A stretch of DNA of 64,000 nucleotides, taken from NCBI GenBank assembly GCA_035510635.1, contig DATKGU010000001.1, positions 649-64,648 on the forward strand, in the 5' to 3' direction. The number at the start of each line of letters is the position of its first letter. Position 1 is the first letter of the stretch. The stretch comes from Minisyncoccota bacterium (lineage in GTDB: Bacteria; Patescibacteriota; Minisyncoccia; Phycocordibacterales; SBAW01). The notes below the pieces were generated by a model. It did no database searches. It saw only the letters and a program-made list of their open reading frames with translations, and was not told the origin of the DNA. A program made the translations under genes and the position numbers. Positions 24,007-31,329 of the stretch are shown piece after piece.

Positions 24007-25374
24007 ATGCAATCAAAAGTATATTTCTACGGCGCGGCGGGTTCGGTTACGGGCTCTAATTTTTTACTTGATACAGGTGGTTCCAAAACGCTCATCGATT
24101 GCGGGCTCTTTCAAGGCAAAAATGCAGGGGAGGAAAACAATTGGGCCGAGTTTCCATTTGATGCTAAAGCAATACCTGTGCTTGTAAACACGCACGCACA
24201 CATCGACCACATCGGCCGCATCCCGCTTTTGGTAAAACGCGGGTTTAAGGGCCGCATCATCTCAACCGAGGCCACACGTGCGATGTCGTTGCCGCTCCTC
24301 CTCGATTGCATGAGCCTCATCAATCACGACGCCGAGCTGCACGGCAAAGAGCCGCTCTACGACGAGCATGACATCAACGCAGCCATGGCGCTGTGGGAAG
24401 GCATTGCGTATCATCAAAAAATAGATTTGGATGACGGTGTGCAGGTGGAGCTCCTAGACTCGGGGCATATTTTGGGCTCGGCAATGGCAAAGTTTACGCG
24501 CGGGAGTAGCAACATTGTGTTTACCGGTGATTTGGGCGGCGGCAACTCGCCGCTTTTGCCGCCGATAGATGATTTAACCGACGCACAGTATCTGGTGATG
24601 GAGAGCGTCTATGGCAATAAAGTGCGGCCGGAAGGAGAGTCTGCACACACGCGCGACATGCTCGAGAATGTTATCGAGGAGAGCATTGCTCGCGGCGGCA
24701 CGCTGCTTATCCCTGCTTTCTCAACCGAGCGCACGCAAGATTTGCTGTTTGAAATCCGCACGCTCATGGTGGAAAAACGCGTGCCATCCGTGCCGGTATA
24801 TATCGACTCGCCGTTGGCAAAACAGATGACCGAAGCATTTTTGAAATATCCGCAATACTTTAGCGAAGCGCTGCAACAGCGTATTAAAAACGGAGAGAAG
24901 ATTTTTGATTTCCCCGAGATGCACACTGTCGAAGATGATGAAGAGTCACGACATTTGGGGGAGGTAGCTGGACCCAACATTATCCTTGCAGGCTCGGGCA
25001 TGAGCAACGGCGGCCGCGTGATAAACCACGAGCGCCGTATATTGCCCGACAAAAAATCGACGCTCCTTATCGTAGGATATCAAGCGGCGGGGAGCCTCGG
25101 CCGGAGGCTTGTTGAGGGCGCTAAAGAGGTTGTGATACATAAAGAAAAAGTGCCGGTACATTGCCGCGTGGAGGCTATCTACGGCTACTCGGCGCACATG
25201 GACGGCGAGCAATTGGTGGAGTTTGTAAATAAAACAAGGAGCACATTAAAAGAAGTGTTTGTGGTGATGGGCGAGCCTGTTGCCTCGAATACGTTGGTGC
25301 AACGCATCCGTGATTATCTCAGTGTGAAAGCAATAGCGCCCGAAGCGGGGGAGAGCGCTGTTGTTGAGTTTTAG
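24007..25374 (+). CDS. MBL-fold metallo-hydrolase with beta-CASP/RNA-specificity domain (RNase J/CPSF-like)
   Basis: HAHIDHIG metallo-beta-lactamase motif, beta-CASP region, C-terminal RMMBL-like segment. Confidence 0.85.
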   Translation: MQSKVYFYGAAGSVTGSNFLLDTGGSKTLIDCGLFQGKNAGEENNWAEFPFDAKAIPVLVNTHAHIDHIGRIPLLVKRGFKGRIISTEATRAMSLPLLLDCMSLINHDAELHGKEPLYDEHDINAAMALWEGIAYHQKIDLDDGVQVELLDSGHILGSAMAKFTRGSSNIVFTGDLGGGNSPLLPPIDDLTDAQYLVMESVYGNKVRPEGESAHTRDMLENVIEESIARGGTLLIPAFSTERTQDLLFEIRTLMVEKRVPSVPVYIDSPLAKQMTEAFLKYPQYFSEALQQRIKNGEKIFDFPEMHTVEDDEESRHLGEVAGPNIILAGSGMSNGGRVINHERRILPDKKSTLLIVGYQAAGSLGRRLVEGAKEVVIHKEKVPVHCRVEAIYGYSAHMDGEQLVEFVNKTRSTLKEVFVVMGEPVASNTLVQRIRDYLSVKAIAPEAGESAVVEF

Positions 25375-25485
25375 GAATCCTAAGAAAAAGGATTAGGAGG
25401 GGCTCTTGAGCGCGACGGCGCGAAAGCTGAGCAAATTTTTAGCAAAAAATTTGAGTACCCTCAGAATCCTTTTTCTTAGGATTCC
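25374..25485. repeat. perfect 21-bp inverted repeat ggaatcctaagaaaaaggatt / aatcctttttcttaggattcc with 70-nt spacer
   Basis: Exact reverse complements. Each arm is itself a small hairpin (aatcc/ggatt). First arm abuts the MBL stop codon. Confidence 0.8.
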
Positions 25486-25507
25486 TTTTGGTGGTAGTAT
25501 TGAGCAA

Positions 25508-26140
25508 ATGGAAGAAACATCGAACAAGACCGCCACGGTTGACCCAAAAAATTTGCATCTCCACATCAAGCTCGGTGTCTCCGGTGCTGCCGAGACAGGC
25601 CATTGCGGTGTTGATGCATACGACAAAGGTCTTGAGCTTGGTCGTGAGATAGCCAAGCAAGGCGCGGTATGTGTCACGGGCGCCACCACCGGCTTCCCGC
25701 TATGGGCGGCGATGGGTGCAAAATCGGCCGGAGGGTTTGTCATTGGCTTCTCACCTGCAAGCTCCGAGAAGGAACATATCGAGCAATACAACTTGCCGGT
25801 GGAGTACCACGACCTCATCGTGTACACCGGCTTTGGCTATCCGGGCCGCGATCTTATTTTTACACGCTCGGTTGACGGCATGTTTTTTGGATGCGGGCGT
25901 ATAGGCACCATACATGAGTTTACGATTGCGTTTGAGGACAACAAGCCGCTTGGTGTGTATGAGGGCGGATGGCCCACCTCGGAGGAGATAAAAAATATTT
26001 TGGCAAACGGCCACCGCCCCAACGAGCACATCCGCTTTGGCGCCGACCCAAAGGCGTTGGTAGGGGAGATACTCGCATTGATAAAAGAGGACAAAATAAA
26101 CAGAGCCTCGTTTAGGTTCGAAAACCCCGACAACGCTTGA
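25508..26140 (+). CDS. LOG/TIGR00725-like Rossmann-fold nucleotide-binding protein
   Basis: Gly-rich Rossmann signatures (VSGAAETGHCGVD, VTGATTGFP). ATG 25508 preferred over 25406, which lies inside the inverted-repeat spacer. Confidence 0.5.
   Translation: MEETSNKTATVDPKNLHLHIKLGVSGAAETGHCGVDAYDKGLELGREIAKQGAVCVTGATTGFPLWAAMGAKSAGGFVIGFSPASSEKEHIEQYNLPVEYHDLIVYTGFGYPGRDLIFTRSVDGMFFGCGRIGTIHEFTIAFEDNKPLGVYEGGWPTSEEIKNILANGHRPNEHIRFGADPKALVGEILALIKEDKINRASFRFENPDNA
26103..26140 (+). repeat. left direct repeat (att-like), the 3' end of the LOG-like gene
   Basis: agagcctcgtttaggttcgaaaaccccgacaacgcttga, about 29/38 identical to 27447-27485. Both encode ...SFRFENPD-x-A stop. Confidence 0.7.
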
Positions 26141-26299
26141 AATAAGCCCTTGTCTTATCCACAGCAAGACTTGCTAATTCCAGTATTAGGTGTATAATTA
26201 GATTTAGCTATATAGTAATTATAGCCCTATGGAATTAGAGTTTTTTCAATTCTAGTCCAATAGAATTAGAAAAGTGTTAATTCCAGTACATAATTTTAC

Positions 26300-27445
26300 A
26301 TGACAAAAACAAGACCAAAAGGACCTTTTAATCTGCCCAAACTTCCTCCCAAGGTATCCTATGCTGACATTGTTGAGCATATTGCTAAGGCGCACACAGC
26401 ACTCGCCCGTCTTGATGAAATGTTGAAGCATATGGGGAATCTATCTCACCTAGAGAGCACCTTTTTTACTCGCGAAGCAGTGTTGAGTTCTAAAATAGAA
26501 GGGACTCAAGTAACACTTGAAGATGTCCTTAAAGAAGAAGCTGAAGGAAAAAAAGAAGTTAACGAAAATACCGAAAGGCAGCGGGATATTGTTGAAGTTC
26601 TAAACTACAGGAGGGCTCTTCGTCTCGGTCTAAAAATGATTGGGGAAGGGGAGTCCCTTGCTGAAAATAACGTAAAAGAGCTTCACAAAATTCTCTTGCA
26701 ATCTGAAAGAGGAAGGACAAGAGCACCCGGGCAATTTCGTAGAGAGCAAGTATATATAGCACCAAAAGGTACGCCTATGGACGAGGCGCGATATATACCC
26801 CCGAGCCCAAATGATATTTCGGAACTGTATAGCAATTTTGATCGGTATCTCAATACGGAAAATGCTGAGCGAGATCCCCTCGTTCAAATTGCAGTGGCAC
26901 ACTATCAATTTGAAGCTATTCACCCATTTAAAGATGGGAACGGGCGTGTCGGCAGATTATTGATACCCCTTTTTCTCTATAAAAGAAAGATTATTGCTCA
27001 TCCTTTTATTTATATAAGTAAGTACTTTGAGGAACACAGACGTGATTATTACGATTTATTGGCCGACGTAAGCTATGAGAGGGCGTGGACAGCCTGGATA
27101 CGGTTTTTCCTACATGGGCTTTGTGAACAAGCCAATGAAGCTACTGAGCTTGGGAGGGCAATTATCAAATTGCGGGATGAGTACCGGTCTCACTTGGCCG
27201 AGTTACACTCGACCTATGCTTTTAATCTCCTTGATGCAATTTTTGAGAGACCATATTTCACCCCGGTCCTTATAGGCAAATTGGCTCATATTAAGAATCC
27301 CCAAACGGTATTAACGTTGATTGGTAAATTTTTAGAGGCTAAAATTATTACTGACTTAACTCCAAAGAAAAAACGCAATAAAATATATGAATTTCATCAC
27401 CTCACAAAGTTATTGCAAGGAAGAGATAAAAAAGGCTCAGACTAA
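26300..27445 (+). CDS. Fic/DOC family protein (AMPylation or related transferase)
   Basis: Canonical Fic motif HPFKDGNGRVGR. AT-rich gene and upstream region with aattag/aattcc repeats. Confidence 0.9.
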   Translation: MTKTRPKGPFNLPKLPPKVSYADIVEHIAKAHTALARLDEMLKHMGNLSHLESTFFTREAVLSSKIEGTQVTLEDVLKEEAEGKKEVNENTERQRDIVEVLNYRRALRLGLKMIGEGESLAENNVKELHKILLQSERGRTRAPGQFRREQVYIAPKGTPMDEARYIPPSPNDISELYSNFDRYLNTENAERDPLVQIAVAHYQFEAIHPFKDGNGRVGRLLIPLFLYKRKIIAHPFIYISKYFEEHRRDYYDLLADVSYERAWTAWIRFFLHGLCEQANEATELGRAIIKLRDEYRSHLAELHSTYAFNLLDAIFERPYFTPVLIGKLAHIKNPQTVLTLIGKFLEAKIITDLTPKKKRNKIYEFHHLTKLLQGRDKKGSD

Positions 27446-27446
27446 T

Positions 27447-27485
27447 AGAGTCTCGTTCCGCTTCGAAAACCCCGACTCAGCATAA
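27447..27485 (+). repeat. right direct repeat: duplicated, synonymously diverged 3' end of the LOG-like gene
   Basis: agagtctcgttccgcttcgaaaaccccgactcagcataa encodes RVSFRFENPDSA-stop versus RASFRFENPDNA-stop at 26103-26140. Confidence 0.7.
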
Positions 27486-27543
27486 AAAGTTATCCCCACA
27501 CCCCGCGCTTCCACCTCATATATAATGGTACAATGAGTGCATC

Positions 27544-27630
27544 ATGAAATCGCTCCTTGCTGGCCTTACACTTACGGCTTTAGGCTTGGTGCATATGGTG
27601 GCCGGGGGGGGGTCAGCTTGTAGCGTCTGA
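27544..27630 (+). CDS. 28-codon signal-peptide-like ORF containing a G9 homopolymer, out of frame with the downstream surface-protein gene
   Basis: MKSLLAGLTLTALGLVHMVAGGGSACSV-stop. G-run at 27604-27612. Removing one G fuses it in frame to the ORF continuing into 27815-30433. Confidence 0.6.
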   Translation: MKSLLAGLTLTALGLVHMVAGGGSACSV

Positions 27631-27814
27631 TATATCCTCTCTCTTTACTCACGCGCCCTTCGTAGCCTCTGGCGGAGTAGGGCCAACCGTTGCCGTTACA
27701 TCTCCTCAACCTTGGCACGCAAAAGGCACCTCGCAAACTGCCAGTGTATTCAACGCCACGGTAGCTATTGCATCTACTACCCCCACTCAAACTGTTCCAC
27801 CAGTACAAAGCACT

Positions 27815-30433
27815 ATGATATATCATAGTGCGTCCAGTACTCCAACCACTCCTGCTGTTGGACCTACGAGGTCGAACACAACATCCAATTCCTCCTCCAG
27901 CAAACTCACTACCGCCTATGTCACTCATGGTGAGCTTACTGCCGCTATTCAACAAGCTATTGGTACACTCCCTGCAATCACAGGAGGTTCAGGACAATCA
28001 ACCTCTCCCTCAATTCAAGCACAGTTGGATGCCCTACAAAGGGAAGTAGCCCTTACCAACAGCATCAACAACCTTGCGCCCACTAACAATGTGGCACTTA
28101 CTATTTCTAACCCTACTATTACGGGAGGTACTATCTCCAACGCCGCACTCCAAGGAAATACCCTCTCTGCCGGAGCTGCTACCTTAGGAGCTACTACTAT
28201 TGCCGGTGGTCTTACCGCCACCGGTGGTGTCACTTTTGACAGTGCGACGACGACTAACTTCTTCACAACCACTGCAAACTCGACAAATCTTTTCACAGTC
28301 AATGCTACTACAACAAGTACCTATTCGTCACTTTACAATACTTCCAGCCTGGGTAAGGGTTACGAAATTGATGGCGGCACAGTCTTGCAAGCGAGTTCAA
28401 CGCTGTACAATTTGTCTATAGGTCACCATCTTATCGGCCTTGCTCCTTATACTTTAGTTAATAGTAATACTTTCGTTGGCGAAGGGGCGTTTGATGTCAA
28501 TAACGGAAGTACCGACAATACTGCCGTGGGCGCCAATGCACTCAATTCGCTTTCAGGTCCAAGTCCAACTAGCGGCGGAAGCAATTCGGCTTTTGGTCAG
28601 GCATCGCTCTACAAATTGACTAGTGGAGGTAATAATTCCGCTTTCGGTTCGCTTGGCATGTTTAATGCCACAAGTAGCAGCAATAACGTTGCTGTTGGTT
28701 ATGGTGCTCTTTACGGCAACGCGGGAACCGGCGGCACGTATGACGACAATACCGCTATTGGTGTGAATTCTCTTTGGTCGGAGACGACTGGTAGCTACAA
28801 CACCGCTTTGGGATACTCCAGTCTTTATGCAAACACTACAGGAGGTAGTAATGTTGCTGTCGGCGCACCGGCCCTTCAGGCAAACACGACGGGTAGCCAC
28901 AATATTGCGGTAGGGATTGCTCTCCCATCAAATATCAGTGGTTCACAAAATGTCGCTATTGGTGATAATGCATTAAATAATTCTACTGCATCTTCGTACA
29001 ACACCGCCGTCGGCGTTAGTTCTTTGTATTCTGACACAAGCGGTCAGTATAATGTGGGCCAAGGCGTCCAATCTCTAAACTCTAACACGACGGGCAGCAA
29101 CAGTGCAGCCATTGGGTATCAGGCGCTCTATAACAACACTAATAGTGACCAAAATACCGCCATAGGCGCTGGAGCTGGGTACGGCAACGGTTCTTATACG
29201 AGTGGATTGAATGTTCTCATTGGGGTTAATGCAAATCGAAATGCAGCGAACAGTGCGAATTACAACACGTTTGTGGGCTACGCAGCTGGATATAACAATC
29301 AAGCTCAAGGTAATACAGGACTCGGGTATCAGGCTGGCTACGATATCACCACAGGTTATTACAATCTTGTTCTCGGTTATTATCCGACCACTGGAGTCGG
29401 GCTTACAAGTGGAAACAACAATATACTTTTTGGCTATGATGTAAGACCTGTCTCGCGGGGTGGTAGCAATCAGCTCAATATAGGCAATCTCATCTTTGGA
29501 ACTGGATTGGGTTCAGGTACGACTCTCTCAACAGGTAGCCTAGGCATCGGCACCACCTCACCCGCTACACTCCTCGAACTTGGTGGTAGTACTGCTAATC
29601 TCACTATGGATGGTTACAAGAATTGCACAGGCTTTACCTCCAACGCCAACGGCCTCGTGGCTTGCACTGCGTCAGACCAACGGTTGAAACAGGGCATTAC
29701 GCCGCTTGATGCCTCAAGCACTCTATCGGCAATTAACGCACTCACCCCCGTGTCCTTCTTCTGGAGGCCAGAGACAGACAGAGGCACACAACAGCAGTAC
29801 GGTCTCATCGCTCAAGCAGTACAACAAATCTTCCCTAATCTTGTTTCTACGAGCTCACCAACAGACTTAACTCCTGATGGCACGCTTACCGTTAACTACG
29901 ACGGCCTCATTGCGCCGATAATTATTGCAATCCAAACACTCAGCAGGGAAGTTGCTTCCCTTACAGCAACCGTGGCGGGGTTTGCAGAAAGTTTTACGAC
30001 GAAAGTTATTAATTCTCAAAAAGATAATACCCAGCAGCTTTGTATCTCCGACGGTCCCAGTGACTCCAATCCTCTGTGTATTACTAAATCACAACTCGCT
30101 AATATTCTCTCTGGTCAATCATCCCCATCGGTCCAAGTGAGCCAATCAACCACCCCCGTCGTCTCCACCTCAACCCCTCCCACCATCAATATCCAAGGTC
30201 AAAACCCTGCCACCATCCACATCGGCGACACCTACACCGACTTGGGTGCCATAGTCACCGACAACCAAGGCCACAACTTGGGTTACACCACCTACCTTAA
30301 CGGTGTGTTAGTTTCTACACTCAGCATTGATACAAGCACCACAACAACCGACACAATAGACTACGTAGCCACTGACACCTGGGGGAATACGAGTACGTCA
30401 ACCCGAACGGTAGTCATAGAAACAGCAAACTAA
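27815..30433 (+). CDS. tail-fibre-like surface protein paralog (872 aa from ATG 27815): repeat region, peptidase S74 intramolecular chaperone domain, C-terminal Ig-like domain
   Basis: NTAVG/NVAVG-type repeats. SDQRLKQGITPLD...YGLIAQAVQQIFPNLV S74 signature. C-terminal IQGQNPATIHIGDTYTDLGAIVTDNQGH...VATDTWGNT near-identical to 7268-10591. Frame is open upstream to 27584 with no in-frame ATG. Confidence 0.8.
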   Translation: MIYHSASSTPTTPAVGPTRSNTTSNSSSSKLTTAYVTHGELTAAIQQAIGTLPAITGGSGQSTSPSIQAQLDALQREVALTNSINNLAPTNNVALTISNPTITGGTISNAALQGNTLSAGAATLGATTIAGGLTATGGVTFDSATTTNFFTTTANSTNLFTVNATTTSTYSSLYNTSSLGKGYEIDGGTVLQASSTLYNLSIGHHLIGLAPYTLVNSNTFVGEGAFDVNNGSTDNTAVGANALNSLSGPSPTSGGSNSAFGQASLYKLTSGGNNSAFGSLGMFNATSSSNNVAVGYGALYGNAGTGGTYDDNTAIGVNSLWSETTGSYNTALGYSSLYANTTGGSNVAVGAPALQANTTGSHNIAVGIALPSNISGSQNVAIGDNALNNSTASSYNTAVGVSSLYSDTSGQYNVGQGVQSLNSNTTGSNSAAIGYQALYNNTNSDQNTAIGAGAGYGNGSYTSGLNVLIGVNANRNAANSANYNTFVGYAAGYNNQAQGNTGLGYQAGYDITTGYYNLVLGYYPTTGVGLTSGNNNILFGYDVRPVSRGGSNQLNIGNLIFGTGLGSGTTLSTGSLGIGTTSPATLLELGGSTANLTMDGYKNCTGFTSNANGLVACTASDQRLKQGITPLDASSTLSAINALTPVSFFWRPETDRGTQQQYGLIAQAVQQIFPNLVSTSSPTDLTPDGTLTVNYDGLIAPIIIAIQTLSREVASLTATVAGFAESFTTKVINSQKDNTQQLCISDGPSDSNPLCITKSQLANILSGQSSPSVQVSQSTTPVVSTSTPPTINIQGQNPATIHIGDTYTDLGAIVTDNQGHNLGYTTYLNGVLVSTLSIDTSTTTTDTIDYVATDTWGNTSTSTRTVVIETAN

Positions 30434-30437
30434 AATA

Positions 30438-30505
30438 TCAAGGACGGTCCTTGAAAAATCCGTGGTGTTGCCACGGATTTTCAAAAACACGGTTTGTGGT
30501 ATACT
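30438..30505 (+). promoter_or_regulatory. two palindromes (tcaaggac-g-gtccttga; aaaaatccgtgg-N5-ccacggattttt) overlapping a TATACT -10 upstream of hicB
   Basis: Perfect inverted repeats directly after the stop of the surface-protein gene. -10 tatact at 30500-30505 with ATG at 30512, so likely leaderless and autoregulated. Confidence 0.5.
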
Positions 30506-30511
30506 ACCCGC

Positions 30512-30721
30512 ATGTATACAGCTGTGTACGAAAAGGTCCCGCAAGGGTATATTGCATGGCTCGAGGAAATCCCGGGAGTGTTAACGCAGGGCAAAACCAA
30601 GCGCCAAACAGAAGAAAACCTTAAAGACGCGTTTAAAGAGTTTATGCTCGCTCAACGCACGCTCACACACAAAGAAACACGCGGTAAAGACATCACTCGG
30701 GAGCGTTTTGTTTGCGCATAG
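30512..30721 (+). CDS. hicB: HicB-family antitoxin (UPF0150 fold)
   Basis: MYTAVYEKVPQGYIAWLEEIPGVLTQGKTKRQTEENLKDAFKEFML matches the HicB N-terminal domain pattern. Overlaps hicA. Confidence 0.7.
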   Translation: MYTAVYEKVPQGYIAWLEEIPGVLTQGKTKRQTEENLKDAFKEFMLAQRTLTHKETRGKDITRERFVCA

Positions 30722-30726
30722 CAACG

Positions 30727-30921
30727 ATGAAACGCCGTGACTTTGAAAGTCATTTGCAGTTGCACAAATGCGATTTAGTGCGCGAAGGCGCTAAACACTC
30801 GGTGTATAAAAACTTTCAAACAGGGAGCAGTTCAACGGTGCCCCGGCATGCGGAGATTTGGCCGGACATGGTCAAAAAAATCTGTAAACAGCTTGGCATT
30901 CCAGTGCCCAAGGGCAAGTAA
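30727..30921 (+). CDS. hicA: HicA-family mRNA interferase toxin
   Basis: GAKHSVY...TVPRH...ICKQLGI matches HicA/YcfA motifs. Confidence 0.7.
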   Translation: MKRRDFESHLQLHKCDLVREGAKHSVYKNFQTGSSSTVPRHAEIWPDMVKKICKQLGIPVPKGK

Positions 30922-30931
30922 GGCATCTCAA

Positions 30932-30962
30932 TAAAAAACTCCGGCATGTGCCGGAGTTTTTT
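30932..30962. terminator. bidirectional terminator aaaaaactccggcatgtgccggagttttttt
   Basis: Stem ctccggca/tgccggag flanked by A and T runs. Serves hicBA (+) and rplT (-). Confidence 0.7.
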
Positions 30963-30975
30963 TGTTTGAAATTTG

Positions 30976-31329
30976 TTAGGAAACTTTGGAGACTACTCTT
31001 GCAAAGGTCTCGGGGGACTTGGCTGCGAGCTCGGAGAGCATTTTGCGGTTTATAAGGACGCCTTGTTTCTTGAGTGCGCCTATAAACTTGCTGTAGGAGA
31101 GTATACCTTCGCCGACATTGTCGAGACCGGCGTTGATGCGGACGTTCCACAAACGGCGAAAGTCGTTTTTCTTGTCGCGGCGGTGCGCAAAGGCGCTTTT
31201 GCCGGCATGAAAGACCGCCTCTTTTGCCGCGCGCTCCTTTTTGCTGCGGGCAAAGCGATAGCCTTTGACCGTTTTAAGGACATTGCGGCGGCGCTTGAGC
31301 GAATTGACTCCTCCTTTTACTCTGGACAT
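30976..31329 (-). CDS. rplT: 50S ribosomal protein L20
   Basis: L20 family sequence. Confidence 0.93.
   Translation of the reverse strand: MSRVKGGVNSLKRRRNVLKTVKGYRFARSKKERAAKEAVFHAGKSAFAHRRDKKNDFRRLWNVRINAGLDNVGEGILSYSKFIGALKKQGVLINRKMLSELAAKSPETFARVVSKVS

Follow-up and report, generated by a model that had tools for sequence, protein, structure and literature searches.

Introduction

SoFic is a single-gene abortive-infection defence system that is reported to AMPylate EF-Tu, and both its phage protection and its action on EF-Tu have been established only for the E. coli and Shewanella proteins. The protein is also reported to bind its own promoter, at most 100 bp from the start codon (bioRxiv 10.64898/2026.07.09.737422). 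SoFic-like single-gene defence is patchily distributed, and its movement without a visible mobile element is poorly understood, above all in the Candidate Phyla Radiation (CPR, Patescibacteria), whose genomes are tiny and hold few recognisable mobile elements. Here we analyse a 64,000-nucleotide (nt) stretch of the metagenome-assembled CPR contig DATKGU010000001.1 (Candidatus Paceibacterota), called the window below, in which a SoFic-type Fic gene has been inserted within the terminal 40–60 bases of a conserved SLOG-family gene of housekeeping type and stands between the live 3' end of that gene and a relic of the 3' end of a different allele.

Several described systems share parts of this arrangement. 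Cis-mobilisable elements (CIMEs) are integrase-less elements flanked by attachment (att) sites that lie next to integrative and conjugative elements (ICEs), as at the 3' end of fda in Streptococcus thermophilus. Like CIMEs, the present locus has direct repeats that take in the 3' end of a protein-coding gene, a target gene that is left intact and an integrase-free interior; unlike CIMEs, with their fixed att sites and single target gene, the Fic loci have a repeat derived from the gene at each locus or none at all and ragged ends, and neither a cognate ICE nor an integrase was seen. In atp6 of Allomyces, an example from fungal mitochondria, a free-standing endonuclease open reading frame (ORF) arrives with a foreign 3' end and displaces the resident end downstream. 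The resulting order of gene, foreign tail, mobile ORF and relic tail is anatomically closer to our locus than that of CIMEs; however, the initiating break is made there by the nuclease ORF, whereas Fic is not known to cut DNA. Integron cassettes are likewise single-gene mobile units without their own recombinase, but the unit described here has no attC or integron platform, carries its own promoter and is inserted at a gene end instead of attI. As a process, the origin proposed below resembles homology-facilitated illegitimate recombination (HFIR, as defined in PMC3240628), in which one end is joined by homology and the other at a microhomology, with no element-encoded enzyme.

Results

The repeat pair at the end of the SLOG gene

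The target gene (25508–26140, + strand) is intact and encodes a protein of 210 amino acids (aa) of SLOG cluster 4, the 'LOG-like' family TIGR00725 (PF18306, E 4e-28). A repeat search found direct repeats of 63 nt at 26080–26142 and 27425–27487, with 73% identity and a spacing of 1345 nt; the first-pass annotation of this DNA had reported the pair at 26103–26140 and 27447–27485, where it is indeed present, and as shorter than it proved to be. The exact 15-nt core TTCGAAAACCCCGAC (26117–26131 and 27462–27476) occurs at only these two places in the 64 kb, even with two mismatches allowed. It is expected 0.12 times, two occurrences were reached in 0 of 100 shuffles, and in the flank scan the score of the repeat pair lay 14 standard deviations above the shuffles, so that the similarity is not due to chance.

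The statement that both repeats encode the C-terminal peptide of the SLOG protein was borne out in frame for each copy: both encode the family-conserved tail NR[A/V]SFRFENPD[N/S]A followed by a stop codon, and the SLOG family as a whole conserves the form INRASFRFxNxDxA. The left copy, with KEDKINRASFRFENPDNA before the stop codon, is the true 3' end of the gene (live tail LIKEDKINRASFRFENPDNA, which is also that of the relative P0243). As the complete tail is joined to the gene, the SLOG gene is whole, and the regeneration of the target gene end claimed for this site is confirmed. The right copy reads KKAQTNRVSFRFENPDSA before its stop codon, has no start codon and lies in a frame other than that of Fic, overlapping the last approximately 7 Fic codons and the Fic stop codon; it is an untranslated relic of a tail allele. 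No third SLOG tail is present in the window.

Three independent public assemblies from other sequencing runs are 100% identical to the window across the junction between SLOG and the cassette, including 790 nt of the cassette, and the junction is therefore not an assembly artefact. The three assemblies with an identical SLOG protein all carry the cassette, and thus there is no presence/absence polymorphism to analyse in this strain.

Insertion and empty sites

The Fic cassette is an insertion. The window and its relatives have the synteny SecY-adk-map-ndk-betaCASP-SLOG in common, and the SLOG protein of the window is 93% identical to P0121. In L001 and L002, the closest relatives compared as DNA (93% SLOG identity), the SLOG stop codon is followed within 45 nt by a hairpin terminator and the convergent rplT gene, and neither L003 nor the contig of P0126 carries Fic. 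In the window this ancestral right neighbour is found at 30932–31329 (− strand; terminator 30932–30964, rplT 30976–31329). Given that position of rplT, the extra DNA extends from 26141 to about 30931, or 4.8 kb, and comprises the Fic cassette, the relic tail and a second block.

These comparisons uphold the earlier proposal of an inserted single-gene Fic cassette, while altering two of its details. Between the repeats there is indeed an AT-rich 1.3-kb insert with Fic as its sole gene (39.7% GC, against 52–54% in the neighbouring genes), but the DNA gained relative to the relatives is the 4.8 kb given above. Empty-site alleles were found as predicted, but the sequence after 27486 is not the ancestral neighbour, a place held by rplT in the relatives. 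As had been stated, the unit contains no integrase, and none is present in the 4.8-kb island.

The Fic gene and its identity

The inserted gene (26300–27445, + strand) encodes a SoFic-type class II Fic AMP-transferase of 381 aa, with Fic_N (PF13784, E 2.5e-23), Fic (PF02661, E 1e-21) and a C-terminal winged helix. The catalytic sequence HPFKDGNGRVGR (aa 208–219, nt 26921–26956) fits HxFx(D/E)GNGRxxR, and the class II inhibitory motif SSKIEG (aa 63–68, nt 26486–26503), of the pattern (S/T)xxxE(G/N), is invariant in 41 homologues. The PADLOC hidden Markov model for SoFic matched residues 12–373 with positions 11–359 of its 361 (E 1e-106), and the match to SoFic in the PDB had an E of 1e-34. The AF2 model, with a predicted local distance difference test (pLDDT) score of 87, superposed on 3zec, 3eqx and 3zcn with template modelling (TM) scores of 0.82–0.86 and a root-mean-square deviation of 2.7–3.1 Å over about 371–380 aligned columns, the C-terminal winged helix included. 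The protein thus shares domain order, catalytic motif, inhibitory helix and full-length fold with SoFic of S. oneidensis (SO_4266/mloA, 'SoFic' in PADLOC and DefenseFinder), but is only about 26% identical to it. The score against the NCBIfam equivalog NF046030 was 186.5 bits, under the cut-off of 550, and the protein is therefore a distant member of the family and not an equivalog. By sequence and predicted fold it adds a new and distant member to the SoFic family already known, a kinship that suggests an anti-phage activity for the cassette. Unlike the E. coli system (PMC12249575), the cassette of the window has no AS1-like small downstream ORF.

Scans of genomes and metagenomes with the Fic protein gave few close relatives, the best with 54% and 67% identity. 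Neither another Fic copy nor a fragment of the cassette is present in the window; the viral contigs searched for a phage vehicle yielded only Fic relatives of at most 41% identity, and every Fic match in the plasmid search was below 60%. On the Thermus thermophilus plasmids pVV8 and pAA2-2c (L185, L186), a 39%-identical Fic lies between helicase-related and DUF1156 genes and beside HicA/HicB, so that Fic and HicAB stand in one defence neighbourhood there as in the window. These two copies, being inside a helicase/DUF1156 operon, are uninformative on repeats.

The promoter region and the DnaA-box-like motif

The regulatory region of the cassette (26148–26299, + strand) contains a TTATCCACA box at 26155–26163, a promoter-like site TTGCTA-16-TATAAT at 26171–26198 (10 of 12 matches, the best in 25300–31100) and four half-sites of the CTAATTCCAGT type, two on the + strand (26174–26184, 26277–26287) and two on the − strand (26228–26238, 26259–26269). 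Other weak matches to the half-site in the window are at chance level. This promoter/operator block is kept in nine CPR cassettes and is their only conserved non-coding part, while the sequence to its left differs at every locus. An AT-rich leader of about 150 nt with repeated sites is also a point of likeness to SoFic, matching its reported binding to its own promoter. The half-sites are probably Fic operators, and the Fic promoter is most likely autoregulated, the protein binding the predicted half-sites and repressing its own gene. A Rfam scan of 25200–27900 gave no match.

A DnaA-box consensus follows each of the two SLOG tails, TTATCCACA 14 nt past the live stop codon and TTATCCCCA 4 nt past the relic one, in each case just upstream of a promoter-like site. 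The second box, TTATCC(C)CA (27490–27498, + strand), is followed by a promoter-like TATAAT for the next gene. The same TTATCC[A/C]CA box marks the left end of all nine CPR Fic cassettes. Its role as a general promoter element was ruled out, as the other six boxes of the window are in coding DNA, and it was also rejected as a second att-like site, none being present downstream of Fic in the repeat-free CPR loci. In L004 a TATCCAC is found 62 nt past the relic, inside a convergent gene, possibly by chance.

Sister cassettes at other genes

The same cassette had been expected in other contexts, and close Fic homologues (72–83% aa identity) were found behind at least seven genes other than SLOG, the number of different genes with such cassettes being eight or more. 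They lie after comM (L004, L005), after tuf (L006, L172), after a gene for a 283-aa protein in a glycosyltransferase cluster (L007–L010), before clpP (L171) and after a gene for a 101-aa protein (L173). In L004 the repeats copy the end of comM (35 nt, 83% identity), which encodes L[E/L]ALQYRERKS, also LEALQYRERKS, followed by the stop codon, and in L173 their source is the end of the 101-aa gene (52 nt or more, 87%). As the repeats of the sister cassettes copy the local gene end, the repeat is a copy of the target gene and not a shared att sequence. No flanking repeat was found in L005, L007, L171 and L172, and all that L006 shows is a 34-nt fragment of tuf, 2.9 kb downstream on the far side of a larger insert.

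The left end of the cassettes is conserved only from the promoter box inward, 10–60 nt from the repeat. The right boundary lies anywhere from inside the Fic stop codon (the window, L107) to about 150 nt beyond it, and nothing past the stop codon is conserved among the cassettes.

Flanking repeats across phyla

A scan of 114 more distant Fic loci drawn from genomes and metagenomes showed that imperfect direct repeats flank Fic in 13 of them, against 1 of 321 shifted control intervals from the same loci (Fisher p 2e-7), and additional brackets of greater width came from a seed-based scan. The repeat-bounded units measure 1.2–1.65 kb, with Fic as the sole full-length gene. Duplicated ends include the 3' ends of prfC (L088, 130 nt), of porG with the cassette inverted (L035, 113 nt), of a type III methylase gene (L107) and of a gene for a PHP-like protein (L078, 214 nt), as well as the 5' end of a type III res gene (L108). 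The length of the repeat varies between loci from 20 to 214 nt, as does its distance from the Fic stop codon, and some pairs are nearly perfect (L018 20/20, L049 22/23, L063 92%). A scar made up of a live gene end and the relic end of a different allele was found at this locus and about 20 others.

Two of these Fic genes are embedded in type III restriction-modification operons (L107 645–5098, L108 150–4384). In L107 the order is mod, Fic and a RhuM/Fic gene; in L108 Fic is flanked on each side by a copy of the initial 45 nt of a gene that has a type III res-subunit domain, and the gene upstream terminates in the LIKPLIWW tail that is also found in L107. Several SoFic-type genes also stand directly beside genes of translational GTPases, namely tuf twice, prfC and typA (L006 5792/6001, L172, L088, L094). 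EF-Tu is the reported AMPylation target of SoFic, but these neighbours may merely reflect highly conserved recombination anchors.

The nature of the two tails

Among 11 coding repeat pairs, codon positions 1, 2 and 3 account for 25, 26 and 73 differences, the third for 59% of them (p 5e-9 against one third; p 6e-4 against the approximately 44% estimated for duplication followed by decay). The codon differences comprise 60 synonymous and 47 non-synonymous ones. As the differences are concentrated at third codon positions, the copies are best read as two functional alleles brought together, and most of the divergence looks to have arisen while both were functional gene ends. Decay is also visible, the relic of the window having A→V and D→A changes at conserved positions.

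Both tail variants of the window lie inside the diversity of the SLOG cluster of at least 90% identity. Over 36 positions, the tail DNA of L001 agrees with the relic at 33 and with the live copy at 30, and 29 are identical between the two copies. As to which tail was resident, the DNA of L001 favours the relic and the protein of P0243 the live tail.

The rest of the island and its surroundings

The second block (27486–30931, + strand), absent from L001 and L002, lies exactly between the relic stop codon and the terminator hairpin. It contains a gene for a Peptidase_S74/Ig-like, 'tail-fibre-like' surface protein (27544–30433, + strand), frameshifted at a run of nine G (27604–27612), and the genes for HicB (30494–30721) and HicA (30712–30921), both on the + strand. 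The S74 gene is split: an ORF with a signal peptide (ATG at 27544) ends soon after the G run, and the body of at least 872 aa occupies the next frame, which is open already ahead of the run, so that one G fewer would fuse the ORFs. The run is either a phase-variable homopolymer or an assembly error.

The gap between SLOG and rplT is a variable spot, occupied by PurS in L003. The SLOG protein P0252, a member of the cluster of at least 90% identity on a 41.8-kb ENA contig, ends in LVKEGQNKQSLL, which is like the tail region in a shifted frame; the tail of P0252 may be broken, perhaps by a further insertion at this position.

A 114-bp element (25373–25486; L001 1065–1178) with perfect inverted repeats of 29 nt around a 56-nt core is located between the genes for the beta-CASP RNase and the SLOG protein. 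In L001 the core is identical (56/56) and reverse-complemented, while the flanking genes are only about 87% identical. The element is absent from L003 and present once in the window, and it resembles an invertible DNA switch or a palindromic element like a miniature inverted-repeat transposable element, flipped between strains.

Discussion

The origin of the cassette and its two tails

The explanation that we prefer, with a probability of about one half, is import of the cassette from a relative, through recombination that used conserved genes as its anchor and an illegitimate join on the other side. The segment 26141–27445 would be a self-contained, single-gene SoFic-type defence cassette with its own promoter, which now sits within what would have been the last 45–60 nt or so of the SLOG gene. 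The donor would be a related Paceibacterota lineage that already carried the cassette just past the SLOG stop codon, and the conserved SLOG and upstream genes would have provided the homology for pairing. At the opposite end, that of the Fic stop codon, the join would have been illegitimate, with microhomology around A[C/T]TAAT, and slightly upstream of the resident stop codon. In this way the import would bring its own gene end, and the resident end would stay behind as an untranslated relic. The route may have been HFIR or one-ended break repair, or, equivalently, a single crossover of a circularised fragment carrying a copy of the tail; no dedicated integrase or transposase would be involved. 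Later recombination between the two tails could delete the cassette precisely.

An import of this kind accounts for the locus-specific repeats, their variable lengths, the ragged ends, either orientation and the allelic differences, as would follow from an HFIR-type process. The position of the cassettes beside very conserved genes (tuf, prfC, typA, comM, SLOG) fits the need for homology between lineages, and the cassettes of L005 and L172, after the same genes and without a relic, are as expected of the donor-type arrangement.

Several points weigh against this import. A donor genome, in which the cassette would follow SLOG without a relic, was not found. The sliding identity between the window and L001 showed no clear mosaic break in SLOG, a comparison of little power at 87% identity. 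The counts for relic and live copy against L001 (33 and 30 of 36) are small, and the SLOG protein nearest to that of the window, P0243, ends in exactly the live tail. The resident tail may thus be the live one and the imported tail the relic, which the simplest one-ended model does not predict. The TTATCC[A/C]CA box after both tail copies is left unexplained by recombination. The control intervals were random neighbouring ones and not recently acquired single genes, so that the scar may be special to SoFic or general. In the laboratory, HFIR mostly gives an insertion together with a deletion, and a retained overlap, that is, a duplication, is less common. A process of the HFIR type is not known from CPR bacteria.

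Other explanations

The first-pass annotation held that the insertion behaves exactly as site-specific integrative elements do, being mobilised in trans or decayed, and this was not supported: the repeats are derived from each locus or absent, the right end is ragged and the differences are concentrated at third positions. In the corresponding model the unit is an integrase-less, CIME-like element whose attL and attR carry the SLOG 3' end, served by a tyrosine or serine recombinase encoded elsewhere, and we consider it unlikely. The gene 3' end in direct repeats and the identical 15-nt core do belong to the CIME class, as do the intact gene and the integrase-free interior, and the TTATCC[A/C]CA box past both copies and at the left end of nine CPR cassettes could be a recombination core. 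However, an integrase, a shared att site or target, and defined ends are missing: there is no att sequence common to the loci, the repeats of the sister cassettes being other gene ends or absent, the right end is unconserved, and L005, L006, L007, L171 and L172 lack a second box downstream of Fic. Third-position differences spread over 30–200 nt are also unlike att arms. Finally, no recombinase was found in the island, nor an integrase or transposase among the Pfam-tested neighbours of the repeat-bearing loci, the rest of the 64-kb window not having been screened.

A mechanism of the cassette's own, like transposition or break repair, could instead duplicate 20–200 nt of the target, after which the downstream copy decays; it may involve the Fic/winged-helix protein or the DnaA-box-like site. 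Its attraction lies in the strong tie of the repeats to the Fic family across phyla, in the uniform size and gene content of the units, in the nearly perfect repeats of L018, L049 and L063, and in the A→V and D→A changes of the relic at otherwise conserved positions. We nevertheless regard it as quite improbable. The duplications have no characteristic length, the units have neither terminal inverted repeats nor a conserved right end, they stand in either orientation to the target (L035), and many copies are repeat-free. The third-position excess is above the estimate for duplication and neutral decay, and the relic of the window is less diverged from L001 than is the live copy. Fic proteins are not known to cleave DNA or to carry out strand transfer. 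That the relic is instead the remnant of a mostly deleted tandem SLOG paralogue or of an old local duplication, with Fic landing between the copies, would agree with the coding-type conservation of both tails and with the variability of the SLOG–rplT interval, and yet it has very little to recommend it: the relatives examined have no tandem SLOG genes, only the last 20 codons or so are present, in just two copies, the relic abuts the Fic stop codon exactly, and other Fic cassettes, at unrelated genes, are bounded by a tail-only duplication of the same kind. An explanation by chance similarity or by a chimeric assembly can practically be set aside. The contig is metagenome-assembled, and the independent contigs do not reach the right junction, but the repeat is far beyond chance, the left junction with the adjoining 790 nt is reproduced, and the same architecture is seen in many unrelated contigs.

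Some further classes were rejected. An insertion sequence or transposon does not fit, there being no transposase ORF, no fixed duplication length (20–214 nt) and, in the repeat search, no terminal inverted repeats that pair the ends of the insert. A diversity-generating retroelement was discarded, since the mismatches involve all four bases in both directions and the island has no reverse transcriptase. An integron cassette was likewise dismissed for want of a conserved or structured 3' site (attC), as the unit has its own strong promoter-like site and 25200–27900 no Rfam match. A programmed +1 frameshift from Fic into the frame of the relic was dropped, because at other loci, L004 among them, Fic and the relic have no overlap.

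Meaning of the scar

In the literature we found no description of Fic or SoFic genes bracketed by duplicated gene ends, or of their mobility by such ends. The scar marks a recent acquisition, locates the insertion with single-base precision and points to conserved gene ends as landing pads. On a more far-reaching view, which we regard as a long shot, SoFic-type genes with their operator-bearing promoters would be widespread, recombinase-less mobile defence cassettes with a dedicated entry into conserved gene ends. The candidate mechanism for such an entry is a break- or replication-linked event that is guided by the TTATCC[A/C]CA site or by the Fic/winged-helix protein and leaves long target-derived duplications. 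If this were true, the cassettes would not be passive passengers of ordinary recombination, and the roughly 10% of loci with gene-end repeats, in Patescibacteria, Verrucomicrobiota, Chloroflexota, Bacteroidota and archaea, would be its footprint.

If the scar is confined to SoFic, it speaks for a mechanism of movement not yet described. If it is general, it would allow recent, recombinase-independent gene gain to be detected simply and from sequence alone, and the flow of defence genes between lineages to be dated and traced. In both cases the duplicated gene end would be a recognisable footprint of the recombinase-independent spread of defence genes, especially in CPR bacteria.

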